64,000 nt of DNA from a virus. The notes under the pieces were generated by a model. That model was not told the DNA's origin, made no database searches, and was given only the letters and a program-made list of their open reading frames with translations. Every line of letters begins with the position of its first letter. Position 1 is the first letter of the stretch. The stretch covers positions 32,001 to 96,000 of the IMG/VR virus record IMGVR_UViG_3300035670_000075. The stretch is one strand, 5' to 3'. The translations under genes were made by a program, and so were the position numbers. Below are positions 1 to 58,239 of this stretch, piece by piece.

Positions 1-3000
1 CGATAGTCGAGAACGGGCCTTCTTTGGCGGGGGAGTGCGGGAACAGTCTGTCAACCCATGCGAACACGTCAACAATGGCTGTCCACAGGTTTTGTGCTGC
101 GCTGGTGACGCCAGCGGAGAAGGTTTCGATGAGCGAGGCACCGAATGCGCTGTAATCAAAATTCATTGCTGAGTACAGCACACCGCCAATAATCAGCATT
201 GATTTTTTGATAGCAGCAGCAACCGCAATTTCAACCACGCTCAGTATGGCGAAACTTTGCTGTATCGCCATTGCCGTCGCCTGTTTGCCATACGCAGACA
301 GCGCTTTCAGTAGCAATTGCGCGCCAGGAATCGACAATCCAGCAGAGATCAGATTAACCACCCGATACCCAAGTGCCGCCCAGTCGATTTCCTTAACCCG
401 CTTGGTGAGGTCGGTGAAGATGCCAAGCAGCGCATCACCGAGCACACTGAAACGGAATTCGCCCTTGAACAGCGTATTGATTGCCGCCGCGACAGTGCCG
501 ATTAAGCGCCCGGCGATAACCAACAGGTGAACCAACGCACCCAAACCGCCAGCCATGAGTTGCATGGCGTGGGCGGCGAAGCGGAATGCTTCGGCAAGAC
601 CTTTGCCGAGCAGCATACCAACACCCTCTCCGGCGCTGGCAAGTCCGACGAGTTCGACTTGCGCCGCGCCTGCGGTATCCATCATCAGCAGTAAACCGGC
701 GACGGTTGGCGCAACGGCAACAGCCAGCGGCTTGAAGGCTTCGACGAGCGGCTTCATGGATTGCGCCATGTTGTTCAGAAAGTCGGTATCGTGAAAGGCC
801 GAGAAAACCCCGCTTAGATGGTCGCCAAACACGCGCAATTCTGCGCTGACAATTTTCAGCGACGGCAACATGCCCTGCATCAGTCCGGTGAAGAACGGCT
901 CAACTGCAATCCAAGCGCGGGCGAAACCCTCGCCAGCCGCGCGACCGAATGAGGCAAAATAACCAATCGCCACGCCCATTACGTCGATGGTAGCGACCAG
1001 CAGTTTCGTCCAGCCGTCAAGCGCTGCCATGAGCACGCCGCCGATGATTTTGCCGAGGAAGTGGGCGGAACCGGCGAAGAATACCAGGGTGCTGCGGCTG
1101 TCTTGGCTGGCAGCATCAAGCCCTAACAGCATGGACACAAAGCGCTGCACGGCGGCGATGACGGGGGCAAGCGCAGTGGTGATCGGCTCGAAGGCGGCGG
1201 CTAGAGCGCCTTGGATGGTCAGTAGAGCATCACCAAGCGGGCTGAGTGCGTCGAGCAAACCTTTGCCGAAGTAGATTGCCATGTATTTGCCGACTTCAGC
1301 GGCAAAGGCAATCACGTTGCGCAGCGGGCGTGTCAGCAGTTCTACATAACCAGCGGCAACCGCCGCAACTTCACCCATAAACTTGAATGCATTGGTCAGG
1401 CGGATGATTCCGTTTGTACCTGACTGCGTAAGGAATCTGAGCGCAGGAGAAAGCCCTGAGTAAATCGTCAACTGAAGCTCTGACAATGCTGATTTATACA
1501 ACCGCACATCGCCAGCCAGGTTTTCCAGGCGGGTTTTCGCCATCATTTCAGAGGTTTGGCTGTCAACATTCTTCAGGCTGTCGGCGTAACTCCCCATTTC
1601 CTTAGTCGCGCTACCAGTGGCTTTAACCAGCACATCCATTACGGTTAGCGCGTTCATACCGAAAATGCGCTTGTAAATACCTGCTCTATCAGCCTCATCC
1701 AAGTGCGCTGTGCGCTCTCTGATCTCCGTGAGGAGTTCGGTCATGGACTTCATGCCGCCCGTGGAGTTCTTGGCGCTGACACCGATTGCGCTTAATGCGC
1801 CGCCAACATCGTCAGCCAAGGCTTCGAGGTCGCCGATGTCGTCACCGGCTTCAATCATTTGGTTGGCAAATTTCTGAAAATCTTTATCGGCAATCTTGGT
1901 CGGTGCTGCCAGGCGCAGTAATGCTTGGCGTAAGGCTGTGCCTGACATGGAGCCTTTCAGTGCGGCGTCGCCAGCCAAGCCGATTGCGGCTGACATTTCT
2001 TCAAACGACATACCCAGTGATTCTGAAATTGGCGCGACGTACTTGGCTGATTCGTAGAACTGTTCGAGATTGACGTTACTGGTGCTCATCACTTTGGCGA
2101 ATACATCGACCATGTGCGGCAGTTCGTCAACGCTCTTGCCGAAGCCTGTCATCAGGTCTGATACGATGTCTGATGTCCGCGCCAACTCAGTGCCACCGGC
2201 AGCGGCGAGATTCAGCACCTCGCCTGTAGATTTCATGATTTGCTGCGTGCTGAAGCCGGCCATCCCAAGGTAATATTGCGCGTCTGCCGCTTCTTTAGCG
2301 GTAAATGCGGTTGCTTGCCCCAGGCTGCGTGCCTGGTCTTCCAGTAGCTTAAGCTCTTTGCGTCCGTCTCCGGTATTGATGTTGATACCTTTGACGGCGG
2401 CGACACTGGCAATCGCTTCCTCGAACGCCATGCCAGTATTGACAATGGCATCGAAGCTCTTGGTGAGCGTGCGAAAACCAACCACAGCCGCCGCGACCGC
2501 ACCGCCGACCAAGGCTGTTTTGGCAATCAGGCGACCCAAAGAGGCTTCGCCAACCTTGGCGCTGCCGGACATGTCTTTGATGTCGGCGTTAAATTCTTTG
2601 ATGTGTTTGCCGGATGTTTGATAGGCGGATGCCGCGCCGGACTTGAACGAACCCCAAAAACCTGCGAGTTGCGCCGGGGCTGATTTTAGGAATGAAGCAA
2701 AGCTTGAGAATGCGTCTTTGAAGGAGAAATTTTTGATGAAATTCGCAATGCCGCTACCAGCGCTGCGGAGCATAGTGACGAAGTTGGCGACTGTCAGTTG
2801 GCTGCGATCAAAGTTCTGCGCCATCGTCCACGCGGCGACGCTGGTGGCAATGATTTTGGCTTGGACGAACGAGGCGATACGCGCCAGCCTGTCTAAGCTG
2901 ACGTATGAAATTACTAAAATATTGTTCAAGCCGGAGAGCGTTTGCATGATCACACTGACTTTGGTAAACGTGTTCATGCTTTGCGCCAACCCGTAAGTGG

Positions 3001-3700
3001 CAACGGCAAGCTTAGCAATCTCCTCACGGTTGCGAACTGCACTAACCGCCATGCTTGCCAACATTAAACTGTGACCACTGCTGGCGGCGGTCGCCTCGCG
3101 GGTGGCTGCGGTGTTTTCTTTTAACGCTTGGGTATCTGCTTGCGTGTTCGCGGCAACAGGCGCAGGTAGAGCCGCAATTTTTTCTCTCTCGGCACGAAGT
3201 TCTTGGAAAGACTTGATGAGTTCTTCATTCGCCTGCTTCAGTTTTTGCGTAGAAGTCAATGCGTCGTCGAGTGCTTTGACGCCGTCTCCATCGACAGACA
3301 CGGTGATTTTTTGATTGATTACCGCCGTCCCGCCAATCCCTGCTGCCTTTTTGCCGGTCTTGTCCAGTTCTTTGTTGAGTTCACGCACTTGCTTGGTGAT
3401 GTTGCCGATAGCGGACGCGGATTGGTTTAGGCTTTTCGCGTCTAGTGCGCCACTGACTTTGACGGCATTCTTCTGGAACTGCTCGAACTCGCGTGCGGTT
3501 TTGGCAAGCTCGGCAAATTGCGCCAAGCCCTCCATGCTTTTCGCCATGCGCTCGGCGTCTTGCATCATCCTCCGCGTGGACTTGTCGAACCGCTCGGCAG
3601 TACGCTCGGCGGCTTCGCCAAGCTTGTCAACTTTCTTGCCAGCGCGATCAATGTCGCTTTCGTTGACGCCAATTTTGTATTCCAAGTCGTGTTCTTGCAT
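1..3700 (-). CDS. Tail tape measure protein, TP901-type core; 3' end runs off the window (>1230 aa)
   Basis: Absent from the ORF track, presumably because no stop falls in the window. Starts MQEHDLEYKIGVNESD at 3700; contains ATAFTAKEAADAQYYLGMAGF...LKGSMSGTALR; in-frame LFPHSPAKEGPFS at the left edge. Confidence 0.9.
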   Translation of the reverse strand, partial: MQEHDLEYKIGVNESDIDRAGKKVDKLGEAAERTAERFDKSTRRMMQDAERMAKSMEGLAQFAELAKTAREFEQFQKNAVKVSGALDAKSLNQSASAIGNITKQVRELNKELDKTGKKAAGIGGTAVINQKITVSVDGDGVKALDDALTSTQKLKQANEELIKSFQELRAEREKIAALPAPVAANTQADTQALKENTAATREATAASSGHSLMLASMAVSAVRNREEIAKLAVATYGLAQSMNTFTKVSVIMQTLSGLNNILVISYVSLDRLARIASFVQAKIIATSVAAWTMAQNFDRSQLTVANFVTMLRSAGSGIANFIKNFSFKDAFSSFASFLKSAPAQLAGFWGSFKSGAASAYQTSGKHIKEFNADIKDMSGSAKVGEASLGRLIAKTALVGGAVAAAVVGFRTLTKSFDAIVNTGMAFEEAIASVAAVKGININTGDGRKELKLLEDQARSLGQATAFTAKEAADAQYYLGMAGFSTQQIMKSTGEVLNLAAAGGTELARTSDIVSDLMTGFGKSVDELPHMVDVFAKVMSTSNVNLEQFYESAKYVAPISESLGMSFEEMSAAIGLAGDAALKGSMSGTALRQALLRLAAPTKIADKDFQKFANQMIEAGDDIGDLEALADDVGGALSAIGVSAKNSTGGMKSMTELLTEIRERTAHLDEADRAGIYKRIFGMNALTVMDVLVKATGSATKEMGSYADSLKNVDSQTSEMMAKTRLENLAGDVRLYKSALSELQLTIYSGLSPALRFLTQSGTNGIIRLTNAFKFMGEVAAVAAGYVELLTRPLRNVIAFAAEVGKYMAIYFGKGLLDALSPLGDALLTIQGALAAAFEPITTALAPVIAAVQRFVSMLLGLDAASQDSRSTLVFFAGSAHFLGKIIGGVLMAALDGWTKLLVATIDVMGVAIGYFASFGRAAGEGFARAWIAVEPFFTGLMQGMLPSLKIVSAELRVFGDHLSGVFSAFHDTDFLNNMAQSMKPLVEAFKPLAVAVAPTVAGLLLMMDTAGAAQVELVGLASAGEGVGMLLGKGLAEAFRFAAHAMQLMAGGLGALVHLLVIAGRLIGTVAAAINTLFKGEFRFSVLGDALLGIFTDLTKRVKEIDWAALGYRVVNLISAGLSIPGAQLLLKALSAYGKQATAMAIQQSFAILSVVEIAVAAAIKKSMLIIGGVLYSAMNFDYSAFGASLIETFSAGVTSAAQNLWTAIVDVFAWVDRLFPHSPAKEGPFSTI

Positions 3701-6577: not shown

Positions 6578-6914
6578 GGGGACGACAAGGCTTCGACAGT
6601 GTGAGTGAGGTATGTCGTGCAGGTAGGTGAGAGTGTCACCTTAAAAAAACTCAAACCAGCAATCGCAAACGACGAACGCTACGCCGTAGCTGCTTAAGCT
6701 ACGCTGCATCGCGGCGGTGCTTGTATACCGCGAATCGCAGTCATTTACAAGATCGTCATGCCTGATGTCTGCGACGGCTTGATTAAATCGGCGGACTCTC
6801 CGCGCCTAAGCCTTTCGCTCGGCGTCGTCGCGGTAACCCAATAGAGCGAATAAACCTGTAGATCGGCATGGTGAAACATGCTGGACGTGGGTTCGATTCC
6901 CACCGTCTCCACCA
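6578..6914 (+). ncRNA. ssrA: tmRNA (transfer-messenger RNA), tag ANDERYAVAA
   Basis: Acceptor stem GGGGACG/CGTCTCC-ACCA with G3:U70; TTCGAC near the 5' end; T-arm GTGGGTTCGATTCCCAC; tag ORF gca aac gac gaa cgc tac gcc gta gct gct taa at 6665-6697. Confidence 0.95.
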
Positions 6915-31302: not shown

Positions 31303-31332
31303 ACGGTGTCGGCTGTACCGCTAAGTTAGGGG
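31303..31332 (-). repeat. Truncated attC half-site (array A)
   Basis: GTCGGCTGTACCGCTAAGTTAGGGG resembles the ends of the other attC sites; the other half is absent. Confidence 0.5.
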
Positions 31333-31337
31333 TTATT

Positions 31338-31520
31338 ATGAATGAGAAAGAGTTGCTTGAGATAATCAACGCATACAAAAACGATATTTTATCCAACGAT
31401 GGAGATAAAGCAGATCGTTTTTTAATGATGCTTGCAAAAGAAGTTGAACGTCAAACACGCCATAAAGCAGTGAAAATTGCTTACGATATGGCAGAGAAAA
31501 TTAGCGATCTGAACTCCTAA
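31338..31520 (+). CDS. Gene-cassette ORF, hypothetical
   Basis: Bounded by GTTAGGGGTT / AACTCCTAAC (9/10 complementary). Confidence 0.65.
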   Translation: MNEKELLEIINAYKNDILSNDGDKADRFLMMLAKEVERQTRHKAVKIAYDMAEKISDLNS

Positions 31521-31613
31521 CGCCGAGCTAAGCCTACCGGTGCTGCCGGTCAACTTGAACCAAAACCGAAAAATCTCGGCGGCACCGGGTCGGCCTTGAG
31601 CGATAAGTTATGG
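31515..31613 (-). repeat. Integron attC site (array A)
   Basis: On +: TCCTAACGCCGAGCTAAGCC...GTCGGCCTTGAGCGATAAGTTATGG; imperfect palindrome with core sites. Confidence 0.85.
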
Positions 31614-31807
31614 CAGATATTACAATGTGCATCAATCAAGCATGTGATATGCGTGAAGACTGCTATAGAGCAAAAGCGACACCTGCTGTTTTCCAAAGTT
31701 TGTGTTTTTTTGCTCCGATAAACGGTAATTGCGAGAATTATATTGAGTATAAGCAGCACACTAAAAAAGCAAAAAATACTGGTATTTGTAGCCATAACGC
31801 TTTATAG
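31610..31807 (+). CDS. Gene-cassette ORF, small Cys-rich protein
   Basis: MADITMC...C..C.R; cassette ends GTTATGGC/GCCATAAC. Confidence 0.65.
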   Translation: MADITMCINQACDMREDCYRAKATPAVFQSLCFFAPINGNCENYIEYKQHTKKAKNTGICSHNAL

Positions 31808-31830: not shown

Positions 31831-32045
31831 GATAATAGCCATTAAATACGGAGACAATGAATATTTTTTAGCTTGGTATGAAGCGCTATGATTTACCTAC
31901 AACAACAAGCTCACTCCACGCAACCCAATCAGCATCAAACACCATTCCATTGCCATCAACAACACCGACCAACGCCGACGTATTGATATTATCAACATCC
32001 TGCACATGCAGGATGTTACCGTTTCGCATGACATCCATGCCAATC

Positions 32046-48864: not shown

Positions 48865-49323
48865 ATTTGGATGACATGACCATAAGATGAATCAGTAACA
48901 GAAATTCTTGAATATCGCTCACCGTGGAAAACAAAGCGAGCGGTAAAAAAAAAAGGCAAGTGGCTAAGCCGTCATGAGAAGCGCCCGCCGAGCGCTTGAA
49001 ATTGCCACATCGGTACGAAGCATCACTGGCTCCAATAGGCAAAGGCGTCTTGAAATGCCGGTGTGTTGCGGTTCGATTCCGTGACTGTGCTTTTTTTATA
49101 GCTATAAGAAGTCAGCAAAATGCATCTCTATTACTGTGGACGTAAAAAATGGCGCGGTTATATGAATCGCGTAACTGAAGCTAGTATGCTTGATGCTTTA
49201 CCATTCGGGAAATTAATTGCGCGGGTAAAAAAGCATCAGGTTTATTTTGTATGTCGTGATGTTTCAAGAAGTCAGCAGGCAATTAAATTGAAAAGATTTT
49301 GGCGGGCTTCGCGCAGTGAATAA

Positions 49324-49421
49324 AGATAACGCCCGAACTCAGGCGACCATTGCCGCCTATGAGCTTTAATTAACCAATTTAAACCGGCGGCAATGGGTCG
49401 GCCTTGACCGCCAAGTTAGGC
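49324..49421 (-). repeat. Integron attC site (array B)
   Basis: On +: AGATAACGCCCGAACTCAGGCGACCATTGCCGCC...GGCGGCAATGGGTCGGCCTTGACCGCCAAGTTAGGC. Confidence 0.85.
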
Positions 49422-49440
49422 TTTTGCCTTTAGGATACAT

Positions 49441-49686
49441 ATGAACACAGACGATATAATGAATGAATCTGAGAAGCTTACAGAGGAACTTGTAAAATAT
49501 CTAGCAAAACGTAAAACAAACCGCGCAGTTGCGATCACGTCATTAGTAGATTGCTGCGTTTTTATCGCTACCGAGTCGAAAGATGAAAAAGTCATTTTCA
49601 CAATACTTGATATGATTCATAAAAGAGTAGACTCAATTGCCAATGAGCTTTTTGCAGAGCGTAGCATATGGAAAGTTAAAGCCTAA
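49441..49686 (+). CDS. Gene-cassette ORF, hypothetical
   Basis: Cassette ends GTTAGGCTTT / AAAGCCTAAC (10/10 complementary). Confidence 0.7.
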   Translation: MNTDDIMNESEKLTEELVKYLAKRKTNRAVAITSLVDCCVFIATESKDEKVIFTILDMIHKRVDSIANELFAERSIWKVKA

Positions 49687-49736
49687 CTTGTAGATAGGCA
49701 GAATGTTGAATAACTGTTATTTAACATTCTGCCTAT
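49681..49736 (-). other. attI-like site containing a 43-bp palindrome (copy 1)
   Basis: ATAGGCAGAATGTTGAATAAC-T-GTTATTTAACATTCTGCCTAT at 49694-49736, next to the core site. Confidence 0.6.
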
Positions 49737-49741
49737 TACCA

Positions 49742-50302
49742 TCACTGCAACGTCACATCATCAGCACCAAGTCTATCTTGGATGCCTATTAACAAAGCCA
49801 ATTCATCCTGGCTCAACTGCTTCACAAGCTCGCGTTCGTCTTTGACTTTCAACTCACCACTAACTTCAGACCTGCTATCTACGCTAAGCCTGTCGAAGCG
49901 CCCAAACTCATCGCGGTAACGTCGCTCCAACAGCCATGCAATCGGTTGCCACGGTGGAGGCGCGGCTTTCTGAATGACCTCGCGGCTGAGTAGGTTGCCG
50001 TCTGCGTCGTAGCGGCGCTTTTCTTCTATAATCACTTGCTTCTGCGTTGAAGCGTCTAGCATCTTTCTAAGCAGGCTTTTCTTGTACTCAAGCTTTGCTT
50101 TTTTTATAGTCTCTGAAAACTCCGAAAACACAGGAGACTTTCTTTCATCTCCGCTTTTCATCCAATCATAAAAAGCAGCTTCACTAACGCCAGCAGCAGT
50201 GCAAGCATCTGCATTTGAAAGCCCTGCCTTAAAAGCCTCCACCAGTATCGCTATAATGTCAGGCGTGAATACCCTCTTCCGCCCGGTCTTACTCTTCGCC
50301 AC
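49742..50302 (-). CDS. Terminase small subunit-like HTH protein
   Basis: GRKRVFTP...ACTAAGVSEAAFYDW; W..IAWLLERRY.DEFG. Confidence 0.7.
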   Translation of the reverse strand: MAKSKTGRKRVFTPDIIAILVEAFKAGLSNADACTAAGVSEAAFYDWMKSGDERKSPVFSEFSETIKKAKLEYKKSLLRKMLDASTQKQVIIEEKRRYDADGNLLSREVIQKAAPPPWQPIAWLLERRYRDEFGRFDRLSVDSRSEVSGELKVKDERELVKQLSQDELALLIGIQDRLGADDVTLQ

Positions 50303-50966
50303 TTTGTCTCACCACCTTCTTTCTCTTCTGCACATCGGGGTAGCGCAGAATAATTCCATCTAATTCAGTTTCAAATGCCAGCAAGTCATCCATTGGTACA
50401 CTGACTGTTATCTTAGCAACTTGCTCCATATTGTCGCCGCCACCATCGCCACCGAAGTCATTGCCATCACCGCCGAAGCCATCACCAAATCCGCTGTTTT
50501 GCAAACTCGCAAACAACGCGCCAGTGTCAACTTCAAGTGCCTTCAGTGCATCGGAAAAGCCAGCCTCCAACGCACTCAAGTCCCACTCGCCACTCACACC
50601 TGGTAGTGGGTTGTCGAGCAGTAAGATTTGCTCCTCTTGCGCCGGGGTCAGCCCGCTGCACACAACGGCTGGAGCGTGAGTAACACCCATGTACAGCACA
50701 GCATCGACACGCAAATGCCCGGCGCACGACATCAACTTGCCAGTCCTATCTGACAATATCGGCAATCGATTCATAAACAACTCAGGAGACTGTTTAATCC
50801 CCTCTGCGAGATTATGAATCTCTACCTTGCCGTACTTGCGCGGATTGGCGCTGCCATTGACAGATGTATAGGGGACTATCTCTCTGTAATCAACCGTCAG
50901 CAACTCGCACTTGGCGGAAGCGGTTATTACGTCCAAAAGCTGTTTTTCTGTTTTTTGCTGCGACAT
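50289..50966 (-). CDS. ParB-N-like domain protein
   Basis: NPRK, AGHLRVDA, LLDN...GEWD; upstream of the TerS-like gene. Confidence 0.65.
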   Translation of the reverse strand: MSQQKTEKQLLDVITASAKCELLTVDYREIVPYTSVNGSANPRKYGKVEIHNLAEGIKQSPELFMNRLPILSDRTGKLMSCAGHLRVDAVLYMGVTHAPAVVCSGLTPAQEEQILLLDNPLPGVSGEWDLSALEAGFSDALKALEVDTGALFASLQNSGFGDGFGGDGNDFGGDGGGDNMEQVAKITVSVPMDDLLAFETELDGIILRYPDVQKRKKVVRQSGEE

Positions 50967-51054
50967 CTTGCGTTAACGCCGTTGTTTGTTTACAATATGT
51001 TTACATAATCTAATATAGATAGATTATACACAGAATTCACACAGGATAACAAAG

Positions 51055-52560
51055 ATGGGCGGCAGCATAATCACCAAAACCATGTTCATGTCAGGCGTGC
51101 AATGCACGCTAAAACTATGGCACGAACAGCATGCCGACAGCAGAGAACCGCCGTCAGAAAGCACGCTGCGCGCAATGGCAGAAGGCAATGAAGTCGGCGC
51201 ACTGGCGCGTGCGCAATATCCTGGCGGCGTATTTATCGCCGAAACAAACTACGAAGCCGCTGCCGCTGCGACGCGCGAGGCATACGAAAACGGCGCGTCG
51301 GTAATCTACGAAGCGGCATTTTTGGTAGATGATATGTACGCCAAAGTCGATATTTTGCATATCGACGAGGAAGGCAACGCAACCATCATTGAAGTAAAAG
51401 CCACTACGTCGGTAAAACCTGAGCATCTTCCAGACGTAGGCTTCCAATGGCACGTTGTCGTAGCGTCTGGTATCAACGTGACTAACGTATACCTGATGAT
51501 TCTCGACGACACCAAGCTGTGTCCGTCTGATAACTACTTCAAACTGGAAGATGTCGCAGAGAAAGCGCAAATCTGGAAAGACGCTGCACAGTCAAAATCG
51601 GTTGCGCTGATGAAAACAGCCAATCAAGCAACACAGCCAACACAACAAATAGGATCACACTGCAACACGCCGTATGACTGCCAATTCACCGATAAATGTT
51701 GGGCGCATGTACCTGATGAGAATAGCATATTTACAATCCCATTCCTGCGTGGGAGAAAAAAACAAGACCTGATCGACGCAGGAATATTCCATATCAACCA
51801 CTTGCCAACTGAATTTGAGGCAACTGCGGCGCAACAGGTGTGGATTGATGTGGCAACCAGTGGCAAGCCAATCGTCAACATTGCCGGAATCAAAGACGAG
51901 CTATCGCAACTGGAATACCCGCTGGCTCACTTCGATTTTGAGACAATGGCATACGCCATCCCAAGATTTGCCGGGATGAAGCCGTATCAGCAGTTCCCAT
52001 TCCAATTTTCACTGCATGTGCAGAGAAAAAATGGGAAAATAACCCATCAAGAATATTTACATGTCACTCGCGACGACCCGCGAAAACACATTGCAGAAGC
52101 CATGCTTGCTTCTATTCCAGACGGCGGACATATCATCACCTGGAACAAACATTTCGAGTCTGGACGCATCATGGAAATGGCAGCGTGGCTGGAGTCAACC
52201 GGAGAAATCTCAAAAGCCAACCAGATGCGCAAGTTCAACGACCGCCTGTGGGACTTGGCTGAGATATTCCGCATCAAAGGCACTGGCGAAGTGCTGTGGC
52301 TGCACCCCGACATGCAGGGGCGCTACAGTATCAAATATGTTCTTCCAGTGATTGCGCCGCACTTGAGCTACAAGGGCATGAAAGTCGCCAAGGGCGATGA
52401 AGCAATGAACGCCTGGGCAAAGCTGATCATGCTTCCAGACGGCAGCGCCGAGAAGCAGGAATTGACATCGGCATTGCTTGCATACTGCAAGCAGGACACA
52501 TACGCGATGGTGGTTATTTTGGATTATCTGTGGAGTCTTGTATGGAAAAGCGGTTTGTAG
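51055..52560 (+). CDS. DUF2779-type nuclease (PD-(D/E)xK plus RNase H-like)
   Basis: QC.LKLW, EG.EVG.LAR, VDIL..IIEVK, DFET, PFQFSLH, SIKYVLP, YCKQDT. Confidence 0.8.
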   Translation: MGGSIITKTMFMSGVQCTLKLWHEQHADSREPPSESTLRAMAEGNEVGALARAQYPGGVFIAETNYEAAAAATREAYENGASVIYEAAFLVDDMYAKVDILHIDEEGNATIIEVKATTSVKPEHLPDVGFQWHVVVASGINVTNVYLMILDDTKLCPSDNYFKLEDVAEKAQIWKDAAQSKSVALMKTANQATQPTQQIGSHCNTPYDCQFTDKCWAHVPDENSIFTIPFLRGRKKQDLIDAGIFHINHLPTEFEATAAQQVWIDVATSGKPIVNIAGIKDELSQLEYPLAHFDFETMAYAIPRFAGMKPYQQFPFQFSLHVQRKNGKITHQEYLHVTRDDPRKHIAEAMLASIPDGGHIITWNKHFESGRIMEMAAWLESTGEISKANQMRKFNDRLWDLAEIFRIKGTGEVLWLHPDMQGRYSIKYVLPVIAPHLSYKGMKVAKGDEAMNAWAKLIMLPDGSAEKQELTSALLAYCKQDTYAMVVILDYLWSLVWKSGL

Positions 52561-52784
52561 TAACTAAAGGCAACGGGACATTCAAAGCTGGCGATAGAAT
52601 AGTCTTTTACAAAAATGGGGACATAGGTTGCGCACAGGCTGGTGGATGGGTTGATAATAAGGACGCAGAAGAAGCTACAAAAGGTATGGAATACAGACCT
52701 GATGTTGAGTTTGCGAAAAAGAAGATTAAACGCCTATCGGAAGAGATTGCAGAGTTGCGCAGAGAATATGGTGTTACTGAATAA
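52542..52784 (+). CDS. Hypothetical protein
   Basis: GGAG RBS. Confidence 0.5.
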   Translation: MEKRFVVTKGNGTFKAGDRIVFYKNGDIGCAQAGGWVDNKDAEEATKGMEYRPDVEFAKKKIKRLSEEIAELRREYGVTE

Positions 52785-52998
52785 TGTTATTTTCCTTTGG
52801 AGTGAAAAACATGCTTACGACTGTTAGGGCTAGAGTTTGCAGAGTTGGTGAATGGGCAGTGTTCCGCACAAAACAGCATGGATTGGTCATGCAAATGGGC
52901 GACGGTTATATGAAAGCGCCTCTGCAAAAAAAGAATATGTTTAAGTTAAATATCAGCGGTAATACGCCATGCCTGGTAAGGTCGCGATGCGATATTAA

Positions 52999-53095
52999 AA
53001 CTAACGCCAAAGCTCAGGCGACAACCGCCGTCTGTGAACCATAAACAACCAAAAAGCCTAACGGCAGCGGGTCGCGCTCAAGTGTGAAGTTAGGC
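52999..53095 (-). repeat. attC site C1
   Basis: AACTAACGCCAAAGCTCAGGCGAC...GTCGCGCTCAAGTGTGAAGTTAGGC. Confidence 0.8.
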
Positions 53096-53109
53096 TGTGG
53101 AGATAAGCC

Positions 53110-53397
53110 ATGACTGAGATTGTAAAAGGAATGAAAATTACGCCTTGGGGTACTAAAGATAACCCTCTTATGCAGGGAATGTTTGTTGGTTGCGTACAAT
53201 GGGCGATTGGTGATAAAGATATAGTTGAATCGTTCAAGAAAGATACAGGTAATGACCTGAACTCGTTAAGATTTTCAGGTATTGATGGAATGATTGATGA
53301 AGCTACAGGAAGGGCTGGAGAGATGTTTGCAGCCTTTGCGGATTATGTGGCTGAAAATATCTGGGGTGATGAAAACTCGGATATTGATGCAGCCTAA
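53110..53397 (+). CDS. Gene-cassette ORF, hypothetical
   Basis: Ends GTTAGGCTG / CAGCCTAAC; GGAG RBS. Confidence 0.7.
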   Translation: MTEIVKGMKITPWGTKDNPLMQGMFVGCVQWAIGDKDIVESFKKDTGNDLNSLRFSGIDGMIDEATGRAGEMFAAFADYVAENIWGDENSDIDAA

Positions 53398-53490
53398 CGC
53401 CAGAATTAACCCGACATGCGCCGCCAATTAACTAAAACCAAGTCATAAAAGCCCGACGGCGCATGGTCGGACTTGATGGCAAAGTTATAC
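53392..53490 (-). repeat. attC site C2
   Basis: GCCTAACGCCAGAATTAACCCGACATGCGCCG...CGGCGCATGGTCGGACTTGATGGCAAAGTTATAC. Confidence 0.85.
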
Positions 53491-53499
53491 GGAGACTAT

Positions 53500-53805
53500 A
53501 TGAGCAAGCAACAATGGGGACATGGATACCACCGTGGTTTTAATAAAGGATACGCAAAGGCGAAGCGCGAAGAGGAAACAAAGCGCGCTTTCAAAGAAAA
53601 TAAACATGCTCATTGGGTTGAGATTACTCATTACGGAAGCGAAGGCGTTGAGCCAAAAGACCGCATGTTATGCGGTGATGTTGGTGGTAGCTGTATAAGC
53701 GGAAGCGGTGAAAGCATATGTGCTGGCTATCGCGGTGAAAATGAAACAGGTACACATGTGATATGCGCTGAAAAACCAAGAGCGTATAAGCATGATTCCG
53801 TATAA
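53500..53805 (+). CDS. Gene-cassette ORF, hypothetical (Cys-containing)
   Basis: Ends GTTATACGGA / TCCGTATAAC. Confidence 0.7.
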   Translation: MSKQQWGHGYHRGFNKGYAKAKREEETKRAFKENKHAHWVEITHYGSEGVEPKDRMLCGDVGGSCISGSGESICAGYRGENETGTHVICAEKPRAYKHDSV

Positions 53806-53898
53806 CGCCAGAACTCAGGCGACCATTGCCGCCTGCAAACTTAAACTTTAGCCAGTTCACTCCGGCGGCAATGGGTCGCCTGGAGTGACAAGTTATAT
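53800..53898 (-). repeat. attC site C3
   Basis: GTATAACGCCAGAACTCAGGCGACCATTGCCGCC...GGCGGCAATGGGTCGCCTGGAGTGACAAGTTATAT. Confidence 0.88.
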
Positions 53899-53911
53899 TG
53901 AGGTAACAAAT

Positions 53912-54181
53912 ATGATTAAAAATCTCAGAAATGATTTTATTGAACTGATGTCAGAGTCATATGTAAAAATGCCAAGGCACGACAGAATATGTCTGCTCCA
54001 TGCAATGGACGCACCTGACAATAACCCAGCGACAGGGCTGCCATTTCAAACAGTAGGCGAACTGTTTGGTTCAATGAGTGACGAATCTTTGGCAACAGTC
54101 TATCGCGATATGCGTGATAACGAATTATTAGCAAGTCGGGACAGCTACAGAAAATATGAAGAAGCCATTAAAAATTTGTGA
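53912..54181 (+). CDS. Gene-cassette ORF, hypothetical
   Basis: Ends GTTATATT / AATATAAC; GAGG RBS. Confidence 0.7.
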   Translation: MIKNLRNDFIELMSESYVKMPRHDRICLLHAMDAPDNNPATGLPFQTVGELFGSMSDESLATVYRDMRDNELLASRDSYRKYEEAIKNL

Positions 54182-54285
54182 ATATAACGCCAAAGCTCAC
54201 GCGACCAATACCGCCCGCGATGAGCTTTAATCCGGCACTAAATTTTGTGGGCGGTATTGGGTCGCCGTGGAGCGTAAAGTTAGGT
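54182..54285 (-). repeat. attC site C4
   Basis: ATATAACGCCAAAGCTCACGCGACCAATACCGCCC...GGGCGGTATTGGGTCGCCGTGGAGCGTAAAGTTAGGT. Confidence 0.88.
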
Positions 54286-54290
54286 GCTTA

Positions 54291-54446
54291 ATGAATAAGA
54301 ATATGAGAGCGGTAGCAAGGAAATCATGCTGGATGGCTAATGGTTTTTTCGGTTCAAACCGCAAAGAAGCCGTTCAAAAAGCAATAGAAAACGGAGTTAA
54401 ACCCGAAAACATAAAAGCTAAAAAAGTATATCCATCTGGCAAATGA
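54291..54446 (+). CDS. Gene-cassette ORF, 51-aa basic peptide (not in the ORF track)
   Basis: MNKNMRAVARKSCWMANGFFGSNRKEAVQKAIENGVKPENIKAKKVYPSGK; ends GTTAGGTG / CACCTAAC. Confidence 0.55.
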   Translation: MNKNMRAVARKSCWMANGFFGSNRKEAVQKAIENGVKPENIKAKKVYPSGK

Positions 54447-54453
54447 ATTTTAC

Positions 54454-54551
54454 ACCTAACGCCTGAGCTAAGCCGCGCTGCGCCGCGATGAACTTTATAT
54501 TAACCTGCTCAAGCCCGACGGCGCAGCGTCGGCTTGAGCGCAAAGTTAGAG
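54454..54551 (-). repeat. attC site C5
   Basis: Minus strand CTCTAACTTTGCGCTCAAGCCGACGCTGCGCCG...GCGCAGCGCGGCTTAGCTCAGGCGTTAGGT, a canonical attC top-strand layout. Confidence 0.92.
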
Positions 54552-54628
54552 GTTGACATGGATAGAATCAAGGTAACAAAAGATTGCATTAAAGTATATG
54601 AGCAGCAAAAAGGTTCAAAAGAATCTTC

Positions 54629-55198
54629 TTACTTATCAAGAAGAAGACTTCTAATTTCTTTGAAATCGTCATCATCAAGAAAGAAAAACTGACATGATTT
54701 TGATTTCTTTTTATTTGACATAATCGTTAATCCTTTATATATGCTTAACGATTGTGTCTTTTTGGCATCTGCACTTGATAATATGCTAACTTTATTAAAT
54801 CCGTTTTTTTCAAAAAAATGTTCTTTACCAATTGAAGATATGAAACATATAGGAGAGAATCTTTCTTTCACTGTGCTAAGCACAAGACTACCAATACCTT
54901 CCATTCTGTATTTTTCTTCAACATATATGCGATGTAGATAGAATTTATCTCCAGGAAAATGAATAACCATAGCATAAGATATTGGGTTTCCTTCATAAAG
55001 GTAAGCTATGATTTTCAAATTACCAACACGAAATAACTCTTTAAATATATTTGATATATAATTTAAAGCATTATCATAATTTATGTTTTTATCAATTGAT
55101 AGCCCAATAATCATTGGAGTTATAAGAGCATCCTGAAGCATTATCTCCGATTCTATTTTTATTATCTGGTTTATATCTGATTGACTAAGCTCACTCAT
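54629..55198 (-). CDS. GNAT acetyltransferase, AT-rich gene cassette in canonical orientation
   Basis: LHRIYVEEKYRMEGIGS, FFEKNGF; ends GTTAGAGGT / ACCTCTAAC. Confidence 0.8.
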   Translation of the reverse strand: MSELSQSDINQIIKIESEIMLQDALITPMIIGLSIDKNINYDNALNYISNIFKELFRVGNLKIIAYLYEGNPISYAMVIHFPGDKFYLHRIYVEEKYRMEGIGSLVLSTVKERFSPICFISSIGKEHFFEKNGFNKVSILSSADAKKTQSLSIYKGLTIMSNKKKSKSCQFFFLDDDDFKEIRSLLLDK

Positions 55199-55202
55199 AT
55201 TT

Positions 55203-55255
55203 ACCTCTAACTTGTAACTAGGCAGAATGTTAAATAACTGTTATTCAACATTCTG
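55203..55255 (-). other. attI-like site containing a palindrome (copy 2)
   Basis: CTAACTTGTAACTAGGCAGAATGTTAAATAACTGTTATTCAACATTCTG, near-identical to 49683-49731. Confidence 0.6.
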
Positions 55256-55267
55256 TATAATACAACC

Positions 55268-55594
55268 ATGTCACAATCATTCCTATCAGCCAACGCCAGG
55301 GCGCAGCGCAGGCACAAAGCCAAACGCGCTGCGCTAGGCTTCTCTCAGCTTAATTTCTGGATTCACGAAAAAGACCGTGACATTCTGGCTTCGGCACTGA
55401 AAAAATACAACGCTGACAAGCTTGAAACGCTGGAGCGGCGCATGAGCTTAATCATTCGTGTCGCCAACGACGAAACTGAAATAACACTGCACGAAGCATC
55501 AGAAATACAACAAAAGATGTTTCCAGAAAATAAACCGCTACCAATAAAAAAAACATGGTGGCAGAAAACCAAAGCATGGCTTGGCGTTAACTAA
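55268..55594 (+). CDS. Hypothetical protein with RHH-like N-terminus
   Basis: NARAQRRHKAKR..LGFSQLNFWIH. Confidence 0.55.
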   Translation: MSQSFLSANARAQRRHKAKRAALGFSQLNFWIHEKDRDILASALKKYNADKLETLERRMSLIIRVANDETEITLHEASEIQQKMFPENKPLPIKKTWWQKTKAWLGVN

Positions 55595-55608
55595 CAATTT
55601 TAACGCGC

Positions 55609-55669
55609 AAGTCATTGATTAAGATAGTATATTACTAGACATAGCACGCAAAATAATTTACATTATTTT
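55609..55669. promoter_or_regulatory. IHF-consensus site plus 8-bp inverted repeat (candidate resolution site)
   Basis: CAAGTCATTGATT matches the reverse complement of WATCAANNNNTTR; AAAATAAT-TTAC-ATTATTTT at 55650-55669. Confidence 0.45.
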
Positions 55670-55688
55670 ATATGTATTATTTTTATAG

Positions 55689-56774
55689 TTGACACAGATG
55701 GAAACTGAAGATTTAGAAGAAAATCATGAATCGGATACGCGCGAAAGACTTCTCAAGAAATACGCCGCAAAATCCATACGGAAAAAGACGCGGCAAGACT
55801 ACGAATCAAGACTTAGGCTTTATCAAGCGTCAGGTAGAAAACTTCCAGCAACTGACGTTGAAATCGTAGAATACATCGAATCGGCAAAAGTCATGTCGCG
55901 TAAGAAAAACGGCGAATACATTACCAAAGACAGCTTGCTTGCTGTGTCATCAGTCCAATCAATAGTTGCTGCTTTGTCGTGGTGGCATCAAGAAAATAAC
56001 CACCAAGACCACACAAATAGCGCGCTGGTTAAAAAAGCCATTGCAGCAATCAAGCGCGAACGCGCAAAACCGCAAGCGCAAGCGCGAGCAATAAAAACTG
56101 AAGAAATTGCAGCAATCACTGAAACGCTACTCGAACTACAAACAACCCAAAATGCCGCAGACAATCTCCGCGCAATCCGCGATCTGGCTTTTATCCTCGC
56201 GCTGTTTTACACCGGGTGCAGAGAAAGCGAAATCCGTCACCTCAGAGTTGATGATCTGGAGTTTACAGATGACGGTCTAATCGTAAAAATCAGAAAGTCA
56301 AAAACAGACGACGGAACTGGAAGAAACACGCCAATCCCATACCGCGATGCTAACGGACAAAAAATACTCGCGGCATACGCGATCTCTGATTGGATTGAAA
56401 AGGCTGGAATAAAGTCTGGCTTCGTATTCAGAACAGTAGACCAATACGCTGTCGTCGGTCGTGGGAAAAAGCCGCTAGACTATGGGTTTTCTTCACGGAC
56501 ACTACTCAAATACGCAGAGATGTCAGGCGTATCAATAGACGGAATCAGCACACACTCATTCAGAGCCGGGTGCGCAACAGCACTAAATTTAAGCGGCGCA
56601 GGTATTGCCGAGATAGCGCAGCACTTAGGTCATCGCTCAACGGCGTCAACGATGAAATACTTACGCGCCGACGCATCAACCAGACTTAAAGACGCACCAA
56701 CACGGAAAATTGCGCAGCCAAAGAAAACTTTTACGCAGATAGTTTTCACGTTTATTGCACGTTTATTTTCGTGA
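55689..56774 (+). CDS. Cre/TnpS-like tyrosine recombinase (resolvase type)
   Basis: RDLAFIL..TGCRESEI, IRKSKTD, THSFRAG, LGH.S...TMKY. Confidence 0.88.
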   Translation: MTQMETEDLEENHESDTRERLLKKYAAKSIRKKTRQDYESRLRLYQASGRKLPATDVEIVEYIESAKVMSRKKNGEYITKDSLLAVSSVQSIVAALSWWHQENNHQDHTNSALVKKAIAAIKRERAKPQAQARAIKTEEIAAITETLLELQTTQNAADNLRAIRDLAFILALFYTGCRESEIRHLRVDDLEFTDDGLIVKIRKSKTDDGTGRNTPIPYRDANGQKILAAYAISDWIEKAGIKSGFVFRTVDQYAVVGRGKKPLDYGFSSRTLLKYAEMSGVSIDGISTHSFRAGCATALNLSGAGIAEIAQHLGHRSTASTMKYLRADASTRLKDAPTRKIAQPKKTFTQIVFTFIARLFS

Positions 56775-56918: not shown

Positions 56919-58055
56919 TCACGATTTTTGCACGTCGAGTGATTCCAGCATGGCTTTGAATTTGTCTCCGGCGTTGGGTGCTGCGGTTGGCATCCAGCGC
57001 GCGTAGAATTTGCGGATCATTGCCCAGTCAGAGTGTCCCATCACGCTTGCGATCCATGCCGGGTTTTCGCCAGCGGTGAGCATCATGCAGGCGAATGTGT
57101 GGCGGGTTTGATAGGGGTAGCGGTAGCGTACTCCGGCGCGCTTCAGAGTTGGACGCCAGACGAATTCCCGTATAGTTTTGTCGTTGCTGTACGGTTTGTT
57201 GGTTTTGGGGTCGAAGAAGATTTGTGCGGCGTGGTGGTAGGTGTGTGATTTTTGTGCAATCACGGCTTCTAACGCGGGGTCGAACAAGGGGACTTCGCGG
57301 CGGCCTGATTTGGTTTTTGGTTCTTTGGTGATTTTGCGTGATTGACTGAGGCGGATGAATACGCGGCGGTTGGGTTCGTCAAAGTCTTCCCACCGTAGCG
57401 CTAGGAGTTCGCCTGTGCGTAGTCCGGTGAAGAAGGCGAAGCGGATGAGGTTGCGGTGTTGTTCGTACTCGCAGGCGGCGAGGATTTGTTGAATCTCTTG
57501 CGGGGTGAATGGATCGGGTTCTTGCGTGGTGGTTTTGAGGTTTTTGATTTTGTCGGCTGGATTGCGTTCAATGGTGCCGTCAATGTAGGCGTCTTCGAGC
57601 ATTCCGCGCAGCGGGATCATGATGTTGTTGATGCGCTTGTTGCTGATGACCAGTCCGGCGATCCAGTCTTTGATGTGGGCTGTTTTGAGGTCTTTGAGCT
57701 TGATATGACCGAACTGAGTTTTCAGGTGGTGATCAATCGCGCTTTGGTAATCGCGGATCGTGGTGTGTGATTTGCCGTGGCTGTTGTTTCGCAGCCAGGC
57801 GTCCAGCGCCTCGGCAATGGTTATTGCGGTAGGCGCGTAGTCGTCGAATAGGGTTGCGCGTTTTGAGTTGGGGAAATGTTTGCGGTAGCTGAATGTGCCT
57901 ACTGCTATTTCATGCTCGATGGCAGCGGCAAGACGCTCGCCGTGTTTTCTATTGGTCAGCGTGTCTTTCAGGCGCAGGCTCTCGCGGCATTGCACGCCGT
58001 TGAGGACGAACCCGATCCACAGCCTGTCGCCGTCTCTTGTGTAGATTTTCGCCAT
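56919..58055 (-). CDS. int: Phage integrase with N-terminal arm-binding (DUF3596-like) domain
   Basis: CRESL.L.DT..N, FSY.KHFPNS, TGLRTGEL, PKTKSG.R, YQTRHTF, MGH, FYARW. Confidence 0.93.
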   Translation of the reverse strand: MAKIYTRDGDRLWIGFVLNGVQCRESLRLKDTLTNRKHGERLAAAIEHEIAVGTFSYRKHFPNSKRATLFDDYAPTAITIAEALDAWLRNNSHGKSHTTIRDYQSAIDHHLKTQFGHIKLKDLKTAHIKDWIAGLVISNKRINNIMIPLRGMLEDAYIDGTIERNPADKIKNLKTTTQEPDPFTPQEIQQILAACEYEQHRNLIRFAFFTGLRTGELLALRWEDFDEPNRRVFIRLSQSRKITKEPKTKSGRREVPLFDPALEAVIAQKSHTYHHAAQIFFDPKTNKPYSNDKTIREFVWRPTLKRAGVRYRYPYQTRHTFACMMLTAGENPAWIASVMGHSDWAMIRKFYARWMPTAAPNAGDKFKAMLESLDVQKS

Positions 58056-58239
58056 GTGCGCTGGTATTTCCCCACATCCAGTTACGAATCGCATCTAAAT
58101 CATACACGATTCGTTTGCCGTCAGGGGCTTTTTTCCAATGCACGCCTTCCAGCCAATGCCCAAGTCGGCGATGAGACTCTTGGGATTTTTGGCTGTAGCC
58201 TGTTTCGCGCGCCAATACGTCACCGAGTACCGGCGTCAT
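57949..58239 (-). CDS. Excisionase-like protein overlapping the integrase start
   Basis: ARETGYS...G.WLEGVHWKKAPDG.RIVYDL.AI..W. Confidence 0.7.
   Translation of the reverse strand: MTPVLGDVLARETGYSQKSQESHRRLGHWLEGVHWKKAPDGKRIVYDLDAIRNWMWGNTSAHGENLHKRRRQAVDRVRPQRRAMPREPAPERHADQ

Follow-up and report, generated by a model that had tools for sequence, protein, structure and literature searches.

Integron gene cassettes without an integron integrase (IntI) were found at three loci of a temperate phage of ~105 kb, recovered from a subsurface metagenome. The cassettes are genuine, the phage is a true temperate one, and the loci are arrays of the CALIN type, a CALIN being defined by at least two closely spaced attC sites in the absence of a neighbouring integron integrase. 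They stand out in that the genes face backward relative to those of bacterial integrons, and that two of the arrays end at the same candidate landing-pad sequence. Coordinates are those of the window, the whole 64,000-nt stretch analysed (positions 32,001 to 96,000 of IMG/VR record IMGVR_UViG_3300035670_000075).

Genes for major head, protease, portal, terminase, tape measure, RNR and primase proteins identify the record as a phage, and a classical integrase with an arm-DNA-binding domain (56919..58094, −) marks it as temperate. The array had no Megablast match in the phage collection or the E. coli genomes, and a distant DNA search with the structural and replication region matched only methyltransferase genes of unrelated phages. 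No close relatives were found in IMG/VR with the Cre-like protein, the DUF2779 protein upstream of the array or the c101 family as queries. A complete related phage, G001, holds two cassettes with the same attC family in the same mirrored layout, and has no IntI. The phage tmRNA matched those of MAGs with this attC family only at the universally conserved 3' end, and no host was assigned.

attC sites and cassette boundaries

The main array, array C, comprises five attC sites of 97-104 nt (C1-C5, 52997-54553) within 1.6 kb, lying between five single-gene cassettes with no IntI. All sites are listed below with their scores under covariance model R1, which was built from the five C1-C5 phage sites only.

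31304..31332, + strand: partial attC, 3' arm only, ending in a GTTAGGGG box; left boundary of array A
31513..31615, + strand (bottom strand on +): attC of array A, 77.9 bits
49322..49423, + strand (bottom strand on +): attC of array B, 75.7 bits
52997..53097, + strand: attC C1 (R'' 7-mer to R' 7-mer, 52999-53095), 88.8 bits; farthest from the head
53390..53492, + strand: attC C2 (R'' to R' 7-mers, 53392-53489), 97.4 bits
53798..53900, + strand: attC C3 (R'' to R' 7-mers, 53800-53898), 102.8 bits
54180..54287, + strand: attC C4 (R'' to R' 7-mers, 54182-54285), 91.8 bits
54452..54553, + strand: attC C5 (R'' to R' 7-mers, 54454-54551), 92.6 bits

RNAalifold folded C1-C5 into one common hairpin with 25 pairs, of which 11 show compensatory double changes. 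The hairpin combines a TAAC/GTTA R box of 5 bp with an unpaired spacer of 5-6 nt, a stem with bulges and a loop that varies. The phage sites have the architecture expected of attCs (R''/R' and L''/L' pairing, a central spacer, extrahelical bases in one arm, a variable loop and a length of 57-141 nt), with the bulged bases in the 3' arm of the + strand; beyond GTTA, their R boxes fit GTTRRRY only partially. In C5 this arm holds an extrahelical T and G, 6 bp apart (GCG[T]CGGCTT[G]AGC), a spacing that matches the published bottom-strand extrahelical-base rule (Nivina et al. 2016).

Over the 105-kb record, R1 found exactly seven sites, all on the + strand, at 76-103 bits. It also matched attCs adjoining true IntI in bacterial MAGs (Giesbergeria, Thiomargarita and Albibeggiatoa) at 60-106 bits (best 105.8). 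The attC family is that of chromosomal integrons in sulfur-oxidising and related Gamma- and Betaproteobacteria. A loose attC pattern picked out 94 stretches of IMG/VR, one of which was real among the 80 scored with the model; Rfam has no attC family. The partial site of array A, which has no covariance-model score, resembles the 3' arms of C5 and of the complete site of array A, and is only partly complementary (5/8) to the next TAAC box.

The cassette boundaries lie at the conserved core, as shown by the end complementarity of all seven adjacent pairs. The R' box of each site is complementary to the next TAAC box over 4, 6, 5, 6, 4, 4 and 5 nt beyond the core, compared with a run of 0-2 nt in 60 of the 63 non-adjacent R'/TAAC combinations, and the two boxes within one site never match over more than 2 nt. 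The original prediction had described five ~100-bp palindromes between single ORFs, self-complementary cassette ends and a canonical extrahelical pattern in C5; the palindromes are present, with model and fold in agreement, the complementary ends are real by the comparison just given, and the C5 pattern is confirmed on the + strand of the window. Its count of three loci holds for the presence of cassettes, but arrays A and B contain one complete attC each.

Cassette genes and their polarity

The genes in and beside the arrays are as follows, with log-odds referring to codon usage.

31338..31520, + strand: cassette gene a60, 60 aa, no assigned function; its stop is the R-box TAA; log-odds +0.42
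31610..31807, + strand: cassette gene a65, 65 aa, Cys-rich; phrog_20586, E 4.6e-6
49120..49323, + strand: gene b67, 67 aa, upstream of attC B
49441..49686, + strand: cassette gene b81, 81 aa, no assigned function; ends GTTAGGCTTT / AAAGCCTAAC; log-odds +0.24
52811..53044, + strand: phage gene u77; 3' end extends 13 codons into C1; frame worked out from the sequence
53110..53397, + strand: cassette gene c95, 95 aa; RBS GGAG; stop within R box; phrog_5692, E 3.4e-5; log-odds +0.36
53500..53805, + strand: cassette gene c101, 101 aa, Cys-rich, conserved AHWV motif (homologue alignment A3)
53912..54181, + strand: cassette gene c89, 89 aa; log-odds +0.22
54291..54446, + strand: cassette gene c51, 51 aa; log-odds +0.20
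54629..55198, − strand: GNAT acetyltransferase, 189 aa; Pfam Acetyltransf_7/_1/_10; 38% G+C region; log-odds only +0.10
55268..55594, + strand: orf108, lying between head and recombinase gene; no match in Pfam, NCBIfam or PHROG

The RBSs, R-box stops, positive codon-usage scores and conserved c101 family indicate that the + strand cassette genes are real; alternative minus-strand ORFs have negative codon-usage scores. Eight full-length homologues of c101, at 33-60% identity, were found among 1.84 billion representatives, and c95 had no homologues beyond its weak PHROG match. In array A, the a65 cassette ends at TAAC 31795-31798, with complementary ends GTTATGGC / GCCATAAC and no head after it, and in array B no cassette boundary was found to the left of b67. 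At the opposite end of array C from the head, u77 would, in the inferred empty site, end at the TAA of the head's TTGTAA. The codon usage of the cassette genes is phage-like. The head-proximal GNAT cassette looks to be the newest and a recent arrival on account of its foreign, AT-rich composition.

The + strand of the window is the attC bottom strand, and the array therefore reads from right to left, starting at the head at 55208-55255. This polarity is fixed by the Giesbergeria, Thiomargarita and Albibeggiatoa integrons (L099, L105 and L110), in which IntI lies to the right on the + strand of the model, with flanking genes on the minus strand; the published extrahelical-base rule gives the same answer. 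In a canonical cassette, the gene lies on the attC top strand and is followed by its attC. Only the GNAT cassette is built in this way, while the other four genes of array C, those of arrays A and B and those of G001 are all on the bottom strand. Mirrored contexts with the same attC family occur in the phage record, in the complete G001 and in two to three phage-like metagenome contigs, and the bacteria have the opposite arrangement. This inversion of genes relative to attC polarity is the least ordinary feature of the arrays and was absent from the original prediction. IntI biology leaves it unexplained, and an extra assumption is needed, either that co-orientation with phage transcription is selected for or that phages have a cassette pool of their own; that genes face opposite ways in phages and bacteria hints at a separate, phage-adapted pool. 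Since the bottom-strand genes are co-directional with phage genes and have phage-like codon usage, they are expected to be expressed by read-through from phage promoters and not from an integron Pc.

The repeated head and the search for an integrase

Array C and array B close on the same junction sequence, and a second recombinase gene lies beyond the head of array C, before the classical integrase.

49684..49731, + strand: head copy B, TAAC followed at the crossover by TTGTAGATAGG, then a 33-nt palindrome; cassette junction of array B
55208..55255, + strand: main head, TAAC followed at the crossover by TTGTAACTAGG, then a palindrome at 55223-55255; junction of the newest cassette, candidate attI-like landing pad
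55607..55673, + strand: recombinase upstream region; GCAAGTCATTGAT motif in common with G001; 11-6-11 dif-like repeat
55698..56774, + strand: Cre-like tyrosine recombinase, 358 aa; Pfam PF00589; not an IntI
56919..58094, − strand: classical phage integrase with arm-DNA-binding domain; Pfam Arm-DNA-bind_2, Phage_int_SAM_3 and Phage_integrase

The two copies of the 48-nt head are alike rightwards from the crossover and unrelated to its left, the pattern common to both loci being TAAC, then TTGTAnnTAGGCAGA from the crossover, then the 33-nt palindrome. In L123, an unrelated phage-like contig, a mirrored methyltransferase cassette ends at a related junction core (TAAC, TGT, GATAGGCAGA). We infer from this repetition that the head may work as a recombination site, an attI-like landing pad. 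It is not required for carriage, as array A and G001 have cassettes without any head. No similarity was detectable between the head and the attI regions of L099, L105 and L110, and its palindrome was not found elsewhere in IMG/VR and JGI metagenome contigs. A scan for a Pc-like promoter leading from the head into the array found none, promoter matches being fewer than in shuffled sequence. The attI-like head of the original prediction survives as a repeated junction and as the head by polarity, but it stands at the right end and is dissimilar to the attI regions compared. Any likeness to the simple site of attI1 is tentative. The heads were also considered as ends of IS elements, attP sites or terminators, but these readings were rejected, since the two copies cease to be homologous precisely at the crossover and are not followed by a T-tract; a TAAC...TAGGCAG match in another locus (L082) was set aside as a chance match without cassette signature.

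The 105-kb record as a whole yielded no IntI, its best TIGR02249 scores being about 20-28 bits against a cut-off of 265; for comparison, the L099 IntI scores 427.7 bits, the L105 IntI is 62% identical to it and the L110 IntI is partial. The absence of IntI that had been reported for the window, together with a call to search the rest of the genome for intI, thus extends to the entire record, although, as this is estimated to be 95% complete, an IntI could still lie on the missing part. The intI of a complete integron is lacking. The Cre-like protein reaches 28.5 bits on TIGR02249 (cut-off 265), aligns with Cre at E about 1e-6 over residues 81-324, and has only one close homologue among 5.8 billion proteins. 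A homologue in the complete G001 is 69 kb from that phage's cassettes, and its upstream region has an inverted repeat. The corresponding region here (55607..55673) is likely to be the target site of the Cre-like enzyme.

Origin of the cassettes and relation to known systems

The cassettes were most likely inserted, and are perhaps still exchanged, by a host IntI acting in trans, a reading that we favour with some confidence and that starts from direct observations: the identity and polarity of the attCs, the end signatures, a record without IntI and the repetition of the head. IntI would cut the folded bottom strand (the + strand of the window) between the A and C of the TAAC box, and the cut strand would be joined to another attC or to a double-stranded target, which at two loci would be the repeated phage head behaving like an attI landing pad. 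The newest cassette, the AT-rich GNAT cassette in canonical orientation, sits next to the head, and the older cassettes, their genes on the bottom-strand side and co-directional with upstream phage genes, are mirror images of bacterial cassettes. Exchange may take place during lysogeny or the SOS response, when intI and prophages would both be induced.

Under a rival reading, the cassettes came from a host chromosomal integron in one or a few events of capture, whether by IntI or through illegitimate or homologous recombination, and would now be fixed phage genes, with the attCs at most intergenic hairpins. The lack of IntI on the record and in G001, a phage-like codon usage that suggests long residence, and the failure to find any close relative that could show cassette variation are all compatible with such a frozen state. 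We nevertheless consider it unlikely, because all seven attCs retain complete pairing, extrahelical bases and perfect end complementarity where decay would be expected without selection, and because the compositionally foreign GNAT cassette next to the head looks recent. In sister samples, moreover, other neighbours are joined exactly at R boxes: Logan contigs from the same study have other sequences attached exactly at the head TAAC, at the C5 TAAC and after the C2 GTTA, although these contigs are short and could come from related phages or bacterial arrays and not from variants of the phage.

An enzyme of the phage itself, either the Cre-like recombinase inserting at the head or a true IntI on the unassembled 5%, would account for the order array, head, (orf108), recombinase, which mirrors the array-attI-intI order of L099 and L105, and the head palindrome can be read as lox-like, with 13-nt arms and a 7-nt spacer. 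This seems to us improbable: the enzyme falls far below the IntI cut-off, its best structural relative is Cre, which acts on duplex sites, its G001 homologue is remote from the cassettes, the two recombinase genes have a common upstream motif distinct from the head, head B has no adjoining recombinase gene, and attC family and crossover position are as in IntI integrons. Hairpins between co-directional genes, one of them picked up by a simple terminator scan, might also be terminators, RNA-processing sites or REP-like repeats that resemble attCs. No T-tracts follow the stems, and the 60-106-bit matches to attCs in IntI-linked arrays, with an end complementarity that joins neighbouring sites and not the arms of one site, and that only core exchange explains, effectively refute this idea, to which we give almost no weight. 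Returning to a host IntI in trans, we offer more speculatively, as a possibility well short of an even chance, that phages of this kind keep their own pool of mirror cassettes and dedicated attI-like landing pads and borrow the host IntI, which the SOS signal would induce along with the prophage, to swap accessory genes among themselves, the reversed genes being readable from phage operons and silent in a bacterial integron.

Integrons have been regarded as devices by which bacteria capture genes, and the first report of their cassettes in phages dates only from 2023. The same short junction closing two arrays, with a related core in an unrelated contig, has the look of a portable landing pad. 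Should host integrases indeed act on these sites, phages would not only carry the integron gene pool but also draw on it, and the attC family would offer a host-prediction clue for uncultured phages.

The original prediction overstated its novelty, as integrons and 17 CALINs in phage genomes have been published, with phage attCs recombined by IntI1 (Qi et al. 2023, PMC9892861). As in those cases, the phage here has at least two attCs bounding small cassettes with no IntI nearby, and a cargo that includes small genes of no known function; a palindrome with inverted GTTRRRY motifs likewise adjoins one of the published CALINs. It differs in having three loci in one genome, two ending at the same repeated junction, and in that the genes are inverted, whereas the best examples in that paper are oriented as in typical bacterial arrays. 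With the sedentary integrons L099, L105 and L110, the phage shares ~100-nt attCs of the form TAACGCC...GTCG...AAGTTA, the same extrahelical-base arm and the same crossover signature; those arrays have IntI with an adjoining attI and genes mostly on the top strand, in contrast to the bottom-strand genes of the IntI-less phage. The head resembles attI and attG sites (Loot et al., bioRxiv 10.1101/2022.09.11.507474) as a double-stranded non-attC partner joined at G/TT, with a conserved stretch of 10-15 nt by the cut, but it lacks the CRGM motif of attG at positions 6-9. As for Cre/loxP of P1 and Xer/dif, the 358-aa enzyme aligns with Cre across the whole catalytic and core-binding region, and a dif-like repeat lies just upstream of its gene. 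The head palindrome is not the motif common to this gene and its G001 homologue, and the Cre-like module appears to be a separate one that serves to resolve dimers or to circularise DNA and probably has no connection with the cassettes.

Seven attC sites in a temperate phage and their bacterial relatives

Five imperfect hairpin sites of 97–104 nt (C1 to C5) lie between 52999 and 55255, each starting with TAACGCC and ending in AAGTTA, with one short gene between each site and the next. RNAalifold gave all five one common structure, a 5-bp TAAC/GTTA box with 5–6 unpaired bases, a long bulged stem and a variable loop, and in 11 of its 25 pairs the pairing is kept by two-sided changes. These hairpins have the anatomy of integron attC sites. 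A covariance model trained on C1–C5 only, then run over the whole 105,387-bp record, found seven sites, all on the + strand, at 76–103 bits. The two outside the main array belong to single-site arrays, A and B:

31513-31615, + strand, attC of array A (covariance model)
49322-49423, + strand, attC of array B (covariance model)

The shared fold and the model bear out the original observation of five attC-like sites between single ORFs, as well as that of three cassette loci. Rfam holds no attC family, and the sole match in an Rfam scan of the window was a tmRNA.

The bases past GTTA, at a site's right end, are complementary to the bases preceding the next TAAC box rightwards, over runs of 4, 6, 5, 6, 4, 4 and 5 nt in the seven adjacent pairs, compared with 0–2 nt in 60 of the 63 non-adjacent combinations used as a control. 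The two ends of one and the same site never matched over more than 2 nt. The only explanation for this pattern is that circularisable units were exchanged at the conserved core, and it confirms the self-complementary cassette ends first observed by eye by a model reader.

The sequence comes from an IMG/VR virus record with an estimated completeness of 95%, of which the window covers bases 32001-96000. It encodes structural and packaging proteins (tape measure, major head protein, head protease, portal, large terminase) and replication and nucleotide functions (clamp-like protein, methyltransferases, ribonucleotide reductase, thymidylate synthase, RecD2-like helicase, D5-type primase); the tape-measure ORF, at 2-3700, extends past the window's left edge. 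Two further features concern the phage's lifestyle and RNA content:

56919-58094, minus strand, tyrosine recombinase, a classical integrase with arm-binding domain
6578-6914, complete tmRNA (Rfam 161 bits; tag peptide ANDERYAVAA)

The integrase marks the phage as temperate, and the tmRNA, located among phage genes, is phage-borne. No repeat of the tmRNA 3' end was found elsewhere in the record, which rules it out as an attachment-site duplicate. At 49060-49100, upstream of b67 (a small gene beside the attC of array B), GGTTCGATTCC resembles a tRNA T-arm and is followed by a T-run; this may be a piece of a tRNA or simply a terminator, and ARAGORN called no tRNA there. The best scores on the IntI model TIGR02249 in the whole record were about 20–28.5 bits against a cut-off of 265, so the lack of IntI noted for the window holds, and extends to the rest of the record.

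A scan of prokaryote species, each represented by a single genome, for a pattern based on these sites matched 13 loci; these lie in MAGs labelled Thiomargarita, Thiotrichaceae, Thiotrichales, Candidatus Albibeggiatoa, Candidatus Thiosymbion, Methylomicrobium and Giesbergeria, in a Dichelobacter-labelled MAG from a cave and in unclassified (Gamma)proteobacterial MAGs. The phage-derived model scored 46–106 bits on these bacterial loci and also matched shorter attCs, of different types, within those arrays. An integron integrase adjoins the array in three of them: that of L099 (355 aa) scores 427.7 bits on TIGR02249 (cut-off 265), that of L105 is 62% identical to it and that of L110 is partial. 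Because the phage model matches in arrays with an adjoining integrase, the phage sites are homologous to attCs of real integrons. The L105 integron (Thiomargarita) has, at 144-940, a 445-bp A/C-rich and apparently non-coding cassette twice in tandem beside attI, and a long palindrome between crossover and intI.

Array polarity and mirror-image genes

The recombined attC bottom strand has its extrahelical bases, a G and a T with a 6-bp stem between them, on the arm near L'', and is cut in the 5'-AAC-3' of the 5' R box (Nivina et al. 2016, PMC5027507). C5 carries this canonical pattern, as had been noticed originally, in the + strand 3' arm (GCG[T]CGGCTT[G]AGC), and all seven sites have extra bases in that arm. 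By the published rule, the + strand is therefore the attC bottom strand. L099, L105 and L110, placed in the same model orientation, have IntI to the right on the + strand and cassette genes mostly on the minus strand. The extrahelical bases and this bacterial layout together indicate that the phage array reads right to left, with these cassettes:

54460-55210, C5 with the GNAT gene, cut at AA/C
54188-54459, C4 with c51, cut at AA/C
53806-54187, C3 with c89, cut at AA/C
53398-53805, C2 with c101, cut at AA/C
53005-53397, C1 with c95, cut at AA/C

Two of their genes are:

54629-55198, minus strand, GNAT acetyltransferase in a region of 38% G+C, the sole gene in canonical orientation
53500-53805, c101, of a ~100-aa Cys-rich family with an invariant AHWV motif

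The + strand, and with it the bottom-strand side, carries the small genes c95, c101, c89 and c51 (named by array and aa length) as well as those of arrays A and B, all in mirror image. Their ribosome-binding sites are at most 20 nt from the GTTA box and their stops fall within or beside the TAAC that comes after. Scored against long genes of the same phage, codon usage was +0.20 to +0.42 bits per codon in six of the seven mirrored genes and only +0.07 in a65 of array A; for comparison, the phage gene orf108 and the neighbouring Cre-like gene scored +0.18 and alternative minus-strand ORFs +0.00 to -0.17. The c101 family has eight full-length homologues among 1.84 billion representatives, with conserved Cys and AHWV positions and none with a Pfam or PHROG family; c95 and a65 have weak PHROG matches. 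By these lines of evidence, the + strand cassette genes are real.

A related complete phage, G001 (130.7 kb, with terminal repeats), carries two mirrored cassettes, and its major head protein shares 38% identity with that of the present phage. Phage-like metagenome contigs L123, L124 and L114, with genes for primase/helicase, PNK-like ATPase, dCMP deaminase and DNA methyltransferases, likewise hold mirrored cassettes of the same attC family with the same end complementarity. The cassette genes of these contigs are for a DNA methyltransferase, a PNK-like ATPase and unknown small proteins; L114 overlaps L124, and the two are seemingly one phage region. Outside the present phage, the mirrored cases of this attC family lie in phage contexts. 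In a crude count of all model matches outside both phages, about 29 flanks were canonical and 11 mirrored; this phage has six mirrored and one canonical, the C5 flank being counted by its GNAT gene, with a mirror-side ORF of only 44 codons. Retained mirrored genes in several unrelated phage contexts have no explanation in known IntI biology. Possibly attC polarity is set by the phage strand that turns single-stranded and gene direction by phage operons, as independent constraints; another possibility is a phage-specific cassette pool, silent in bacterial arrays.

A candidate landing pad and the likely recombining enzyme

The main array and array B share the right-end sequence TAAC/TTGTA(AC/GA)TAGGCAGAATGTT(A/G)AATAAC-T-GTTATT(C/T)AACATTCTG, with the crossover after TAAC. 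This head (55208-55255 and 49684-49731) includes a 33-nt palindrome, and its copies are ~90% identical over some 50 nt rightward of the crossover and unrelated leftward, as would be expected if site-specific insertion had used the same defined point in both copies of a target. The record has only these two copies, and none was found elsewhere in IMG/VR or JGI metagenomes. In L123 a related core (TAAC, then TGT, then GATAGGCAGA) stands at the end of a mirrored methyltransferase cassette; about four chance matches to this loose motif are expected over all fetched DNA, and this one counts only because it is placed exactly at a cassette end. A match in another locus, L082, was set aside as chance. 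A palindrome likewise lies no more than about 10 nt from the crossover in the attI regions of L099 and L105, whose sequences have nothing in common with the head. The phage gene u77 (52811-53044) at present runs 13 codons into C1; with the array removed in thought, its stop codon would be the TAA within TTGTAA. Judged by junction geometry, the head is a candidate attI-like landing pad. As direct repeats, the heads stand 5.5 kb from each other (49684-55255); the segment that they enclose holds, besides the main array, two small genes and genes for an HTH protein, a 225-aa unknown protein and a DUF2779 protein.

Next to the main head lie:

55698-56774, Cre-like tyrosine recombinase of 358 aa, best solved relatives Cre recombinases (residues 81-324)
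55607-55673 (and L132 2587-2632 in G001), GCAAGTYATTGAT motif region upstream of the recombinase genes

The position and direction of this recombinase relative to head and array copy the intI–attI–array layout, and for this reason it was considered as the enzyme running the cassettes. Several observations argue against this: the protein, which scores 28.5 bits on the IntI model, is Cre-like and a near-orphan, for which 5.8 billion proteins yielded a single homologue, at 93%, its G001 homologue (29% identity) is encoded 69 kb from the G001 cassettes, and both genes share the upstream GCAAGTYATTGAT motif, in inverted/dif-like repeats distinct from the head. The motif region is a candidate lox/dif-type site of a little-known recombinase family. 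Most simply, the recombinase is a dimer-resolution or circularisation module that lies beside the array by chance, and a host IntI acting in trans on the phage sites is the best-supported reading.

Possible cassette turnover and known phage CALINs

The SOS response induces intI. In this phage, IntI may act during lysogeny or induction, with SOS inducing intI. New cassettes would enter at the head, GNAT being the latest arrival, and others would be moved by attC x attC exchange; the phage would keep cassettes whose genes run along its own transcription.

The stretch is present in four runs of one subsurface metagenome study. Logan contigs from these data show a different sequence ahead of the head, joined from its CTAAC onward (run X2), and ahead of C5, joined from its TAAC onward (run X3); in X1 and X2, the GTTA of a C2-like site leads into a different ribosome-binding site and ATG, and a different sequence stands 3' of the head. 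These junction pieces, which are short and may stem from related phages or bacterial arrays, fit cassette exchange without proving it.

Integrons and 17 CALINs, with functional attCs, have been described in phage genomes (Qi et al. 2023, PMC9892861), and cassette insertion sites in the genome outside integrons have been reported (Loot et al., bioRxiv 10.1101/2022.09.11.507474). The present locus is a CALIN, an attC cluster without integron integrase, and not a complete integron. We could find in neither work mirror polarity, a repeated landing pad or three loci in one phage; the locus is of the kind already known from the published phage CALINs, and it is these three features that it adds to them.
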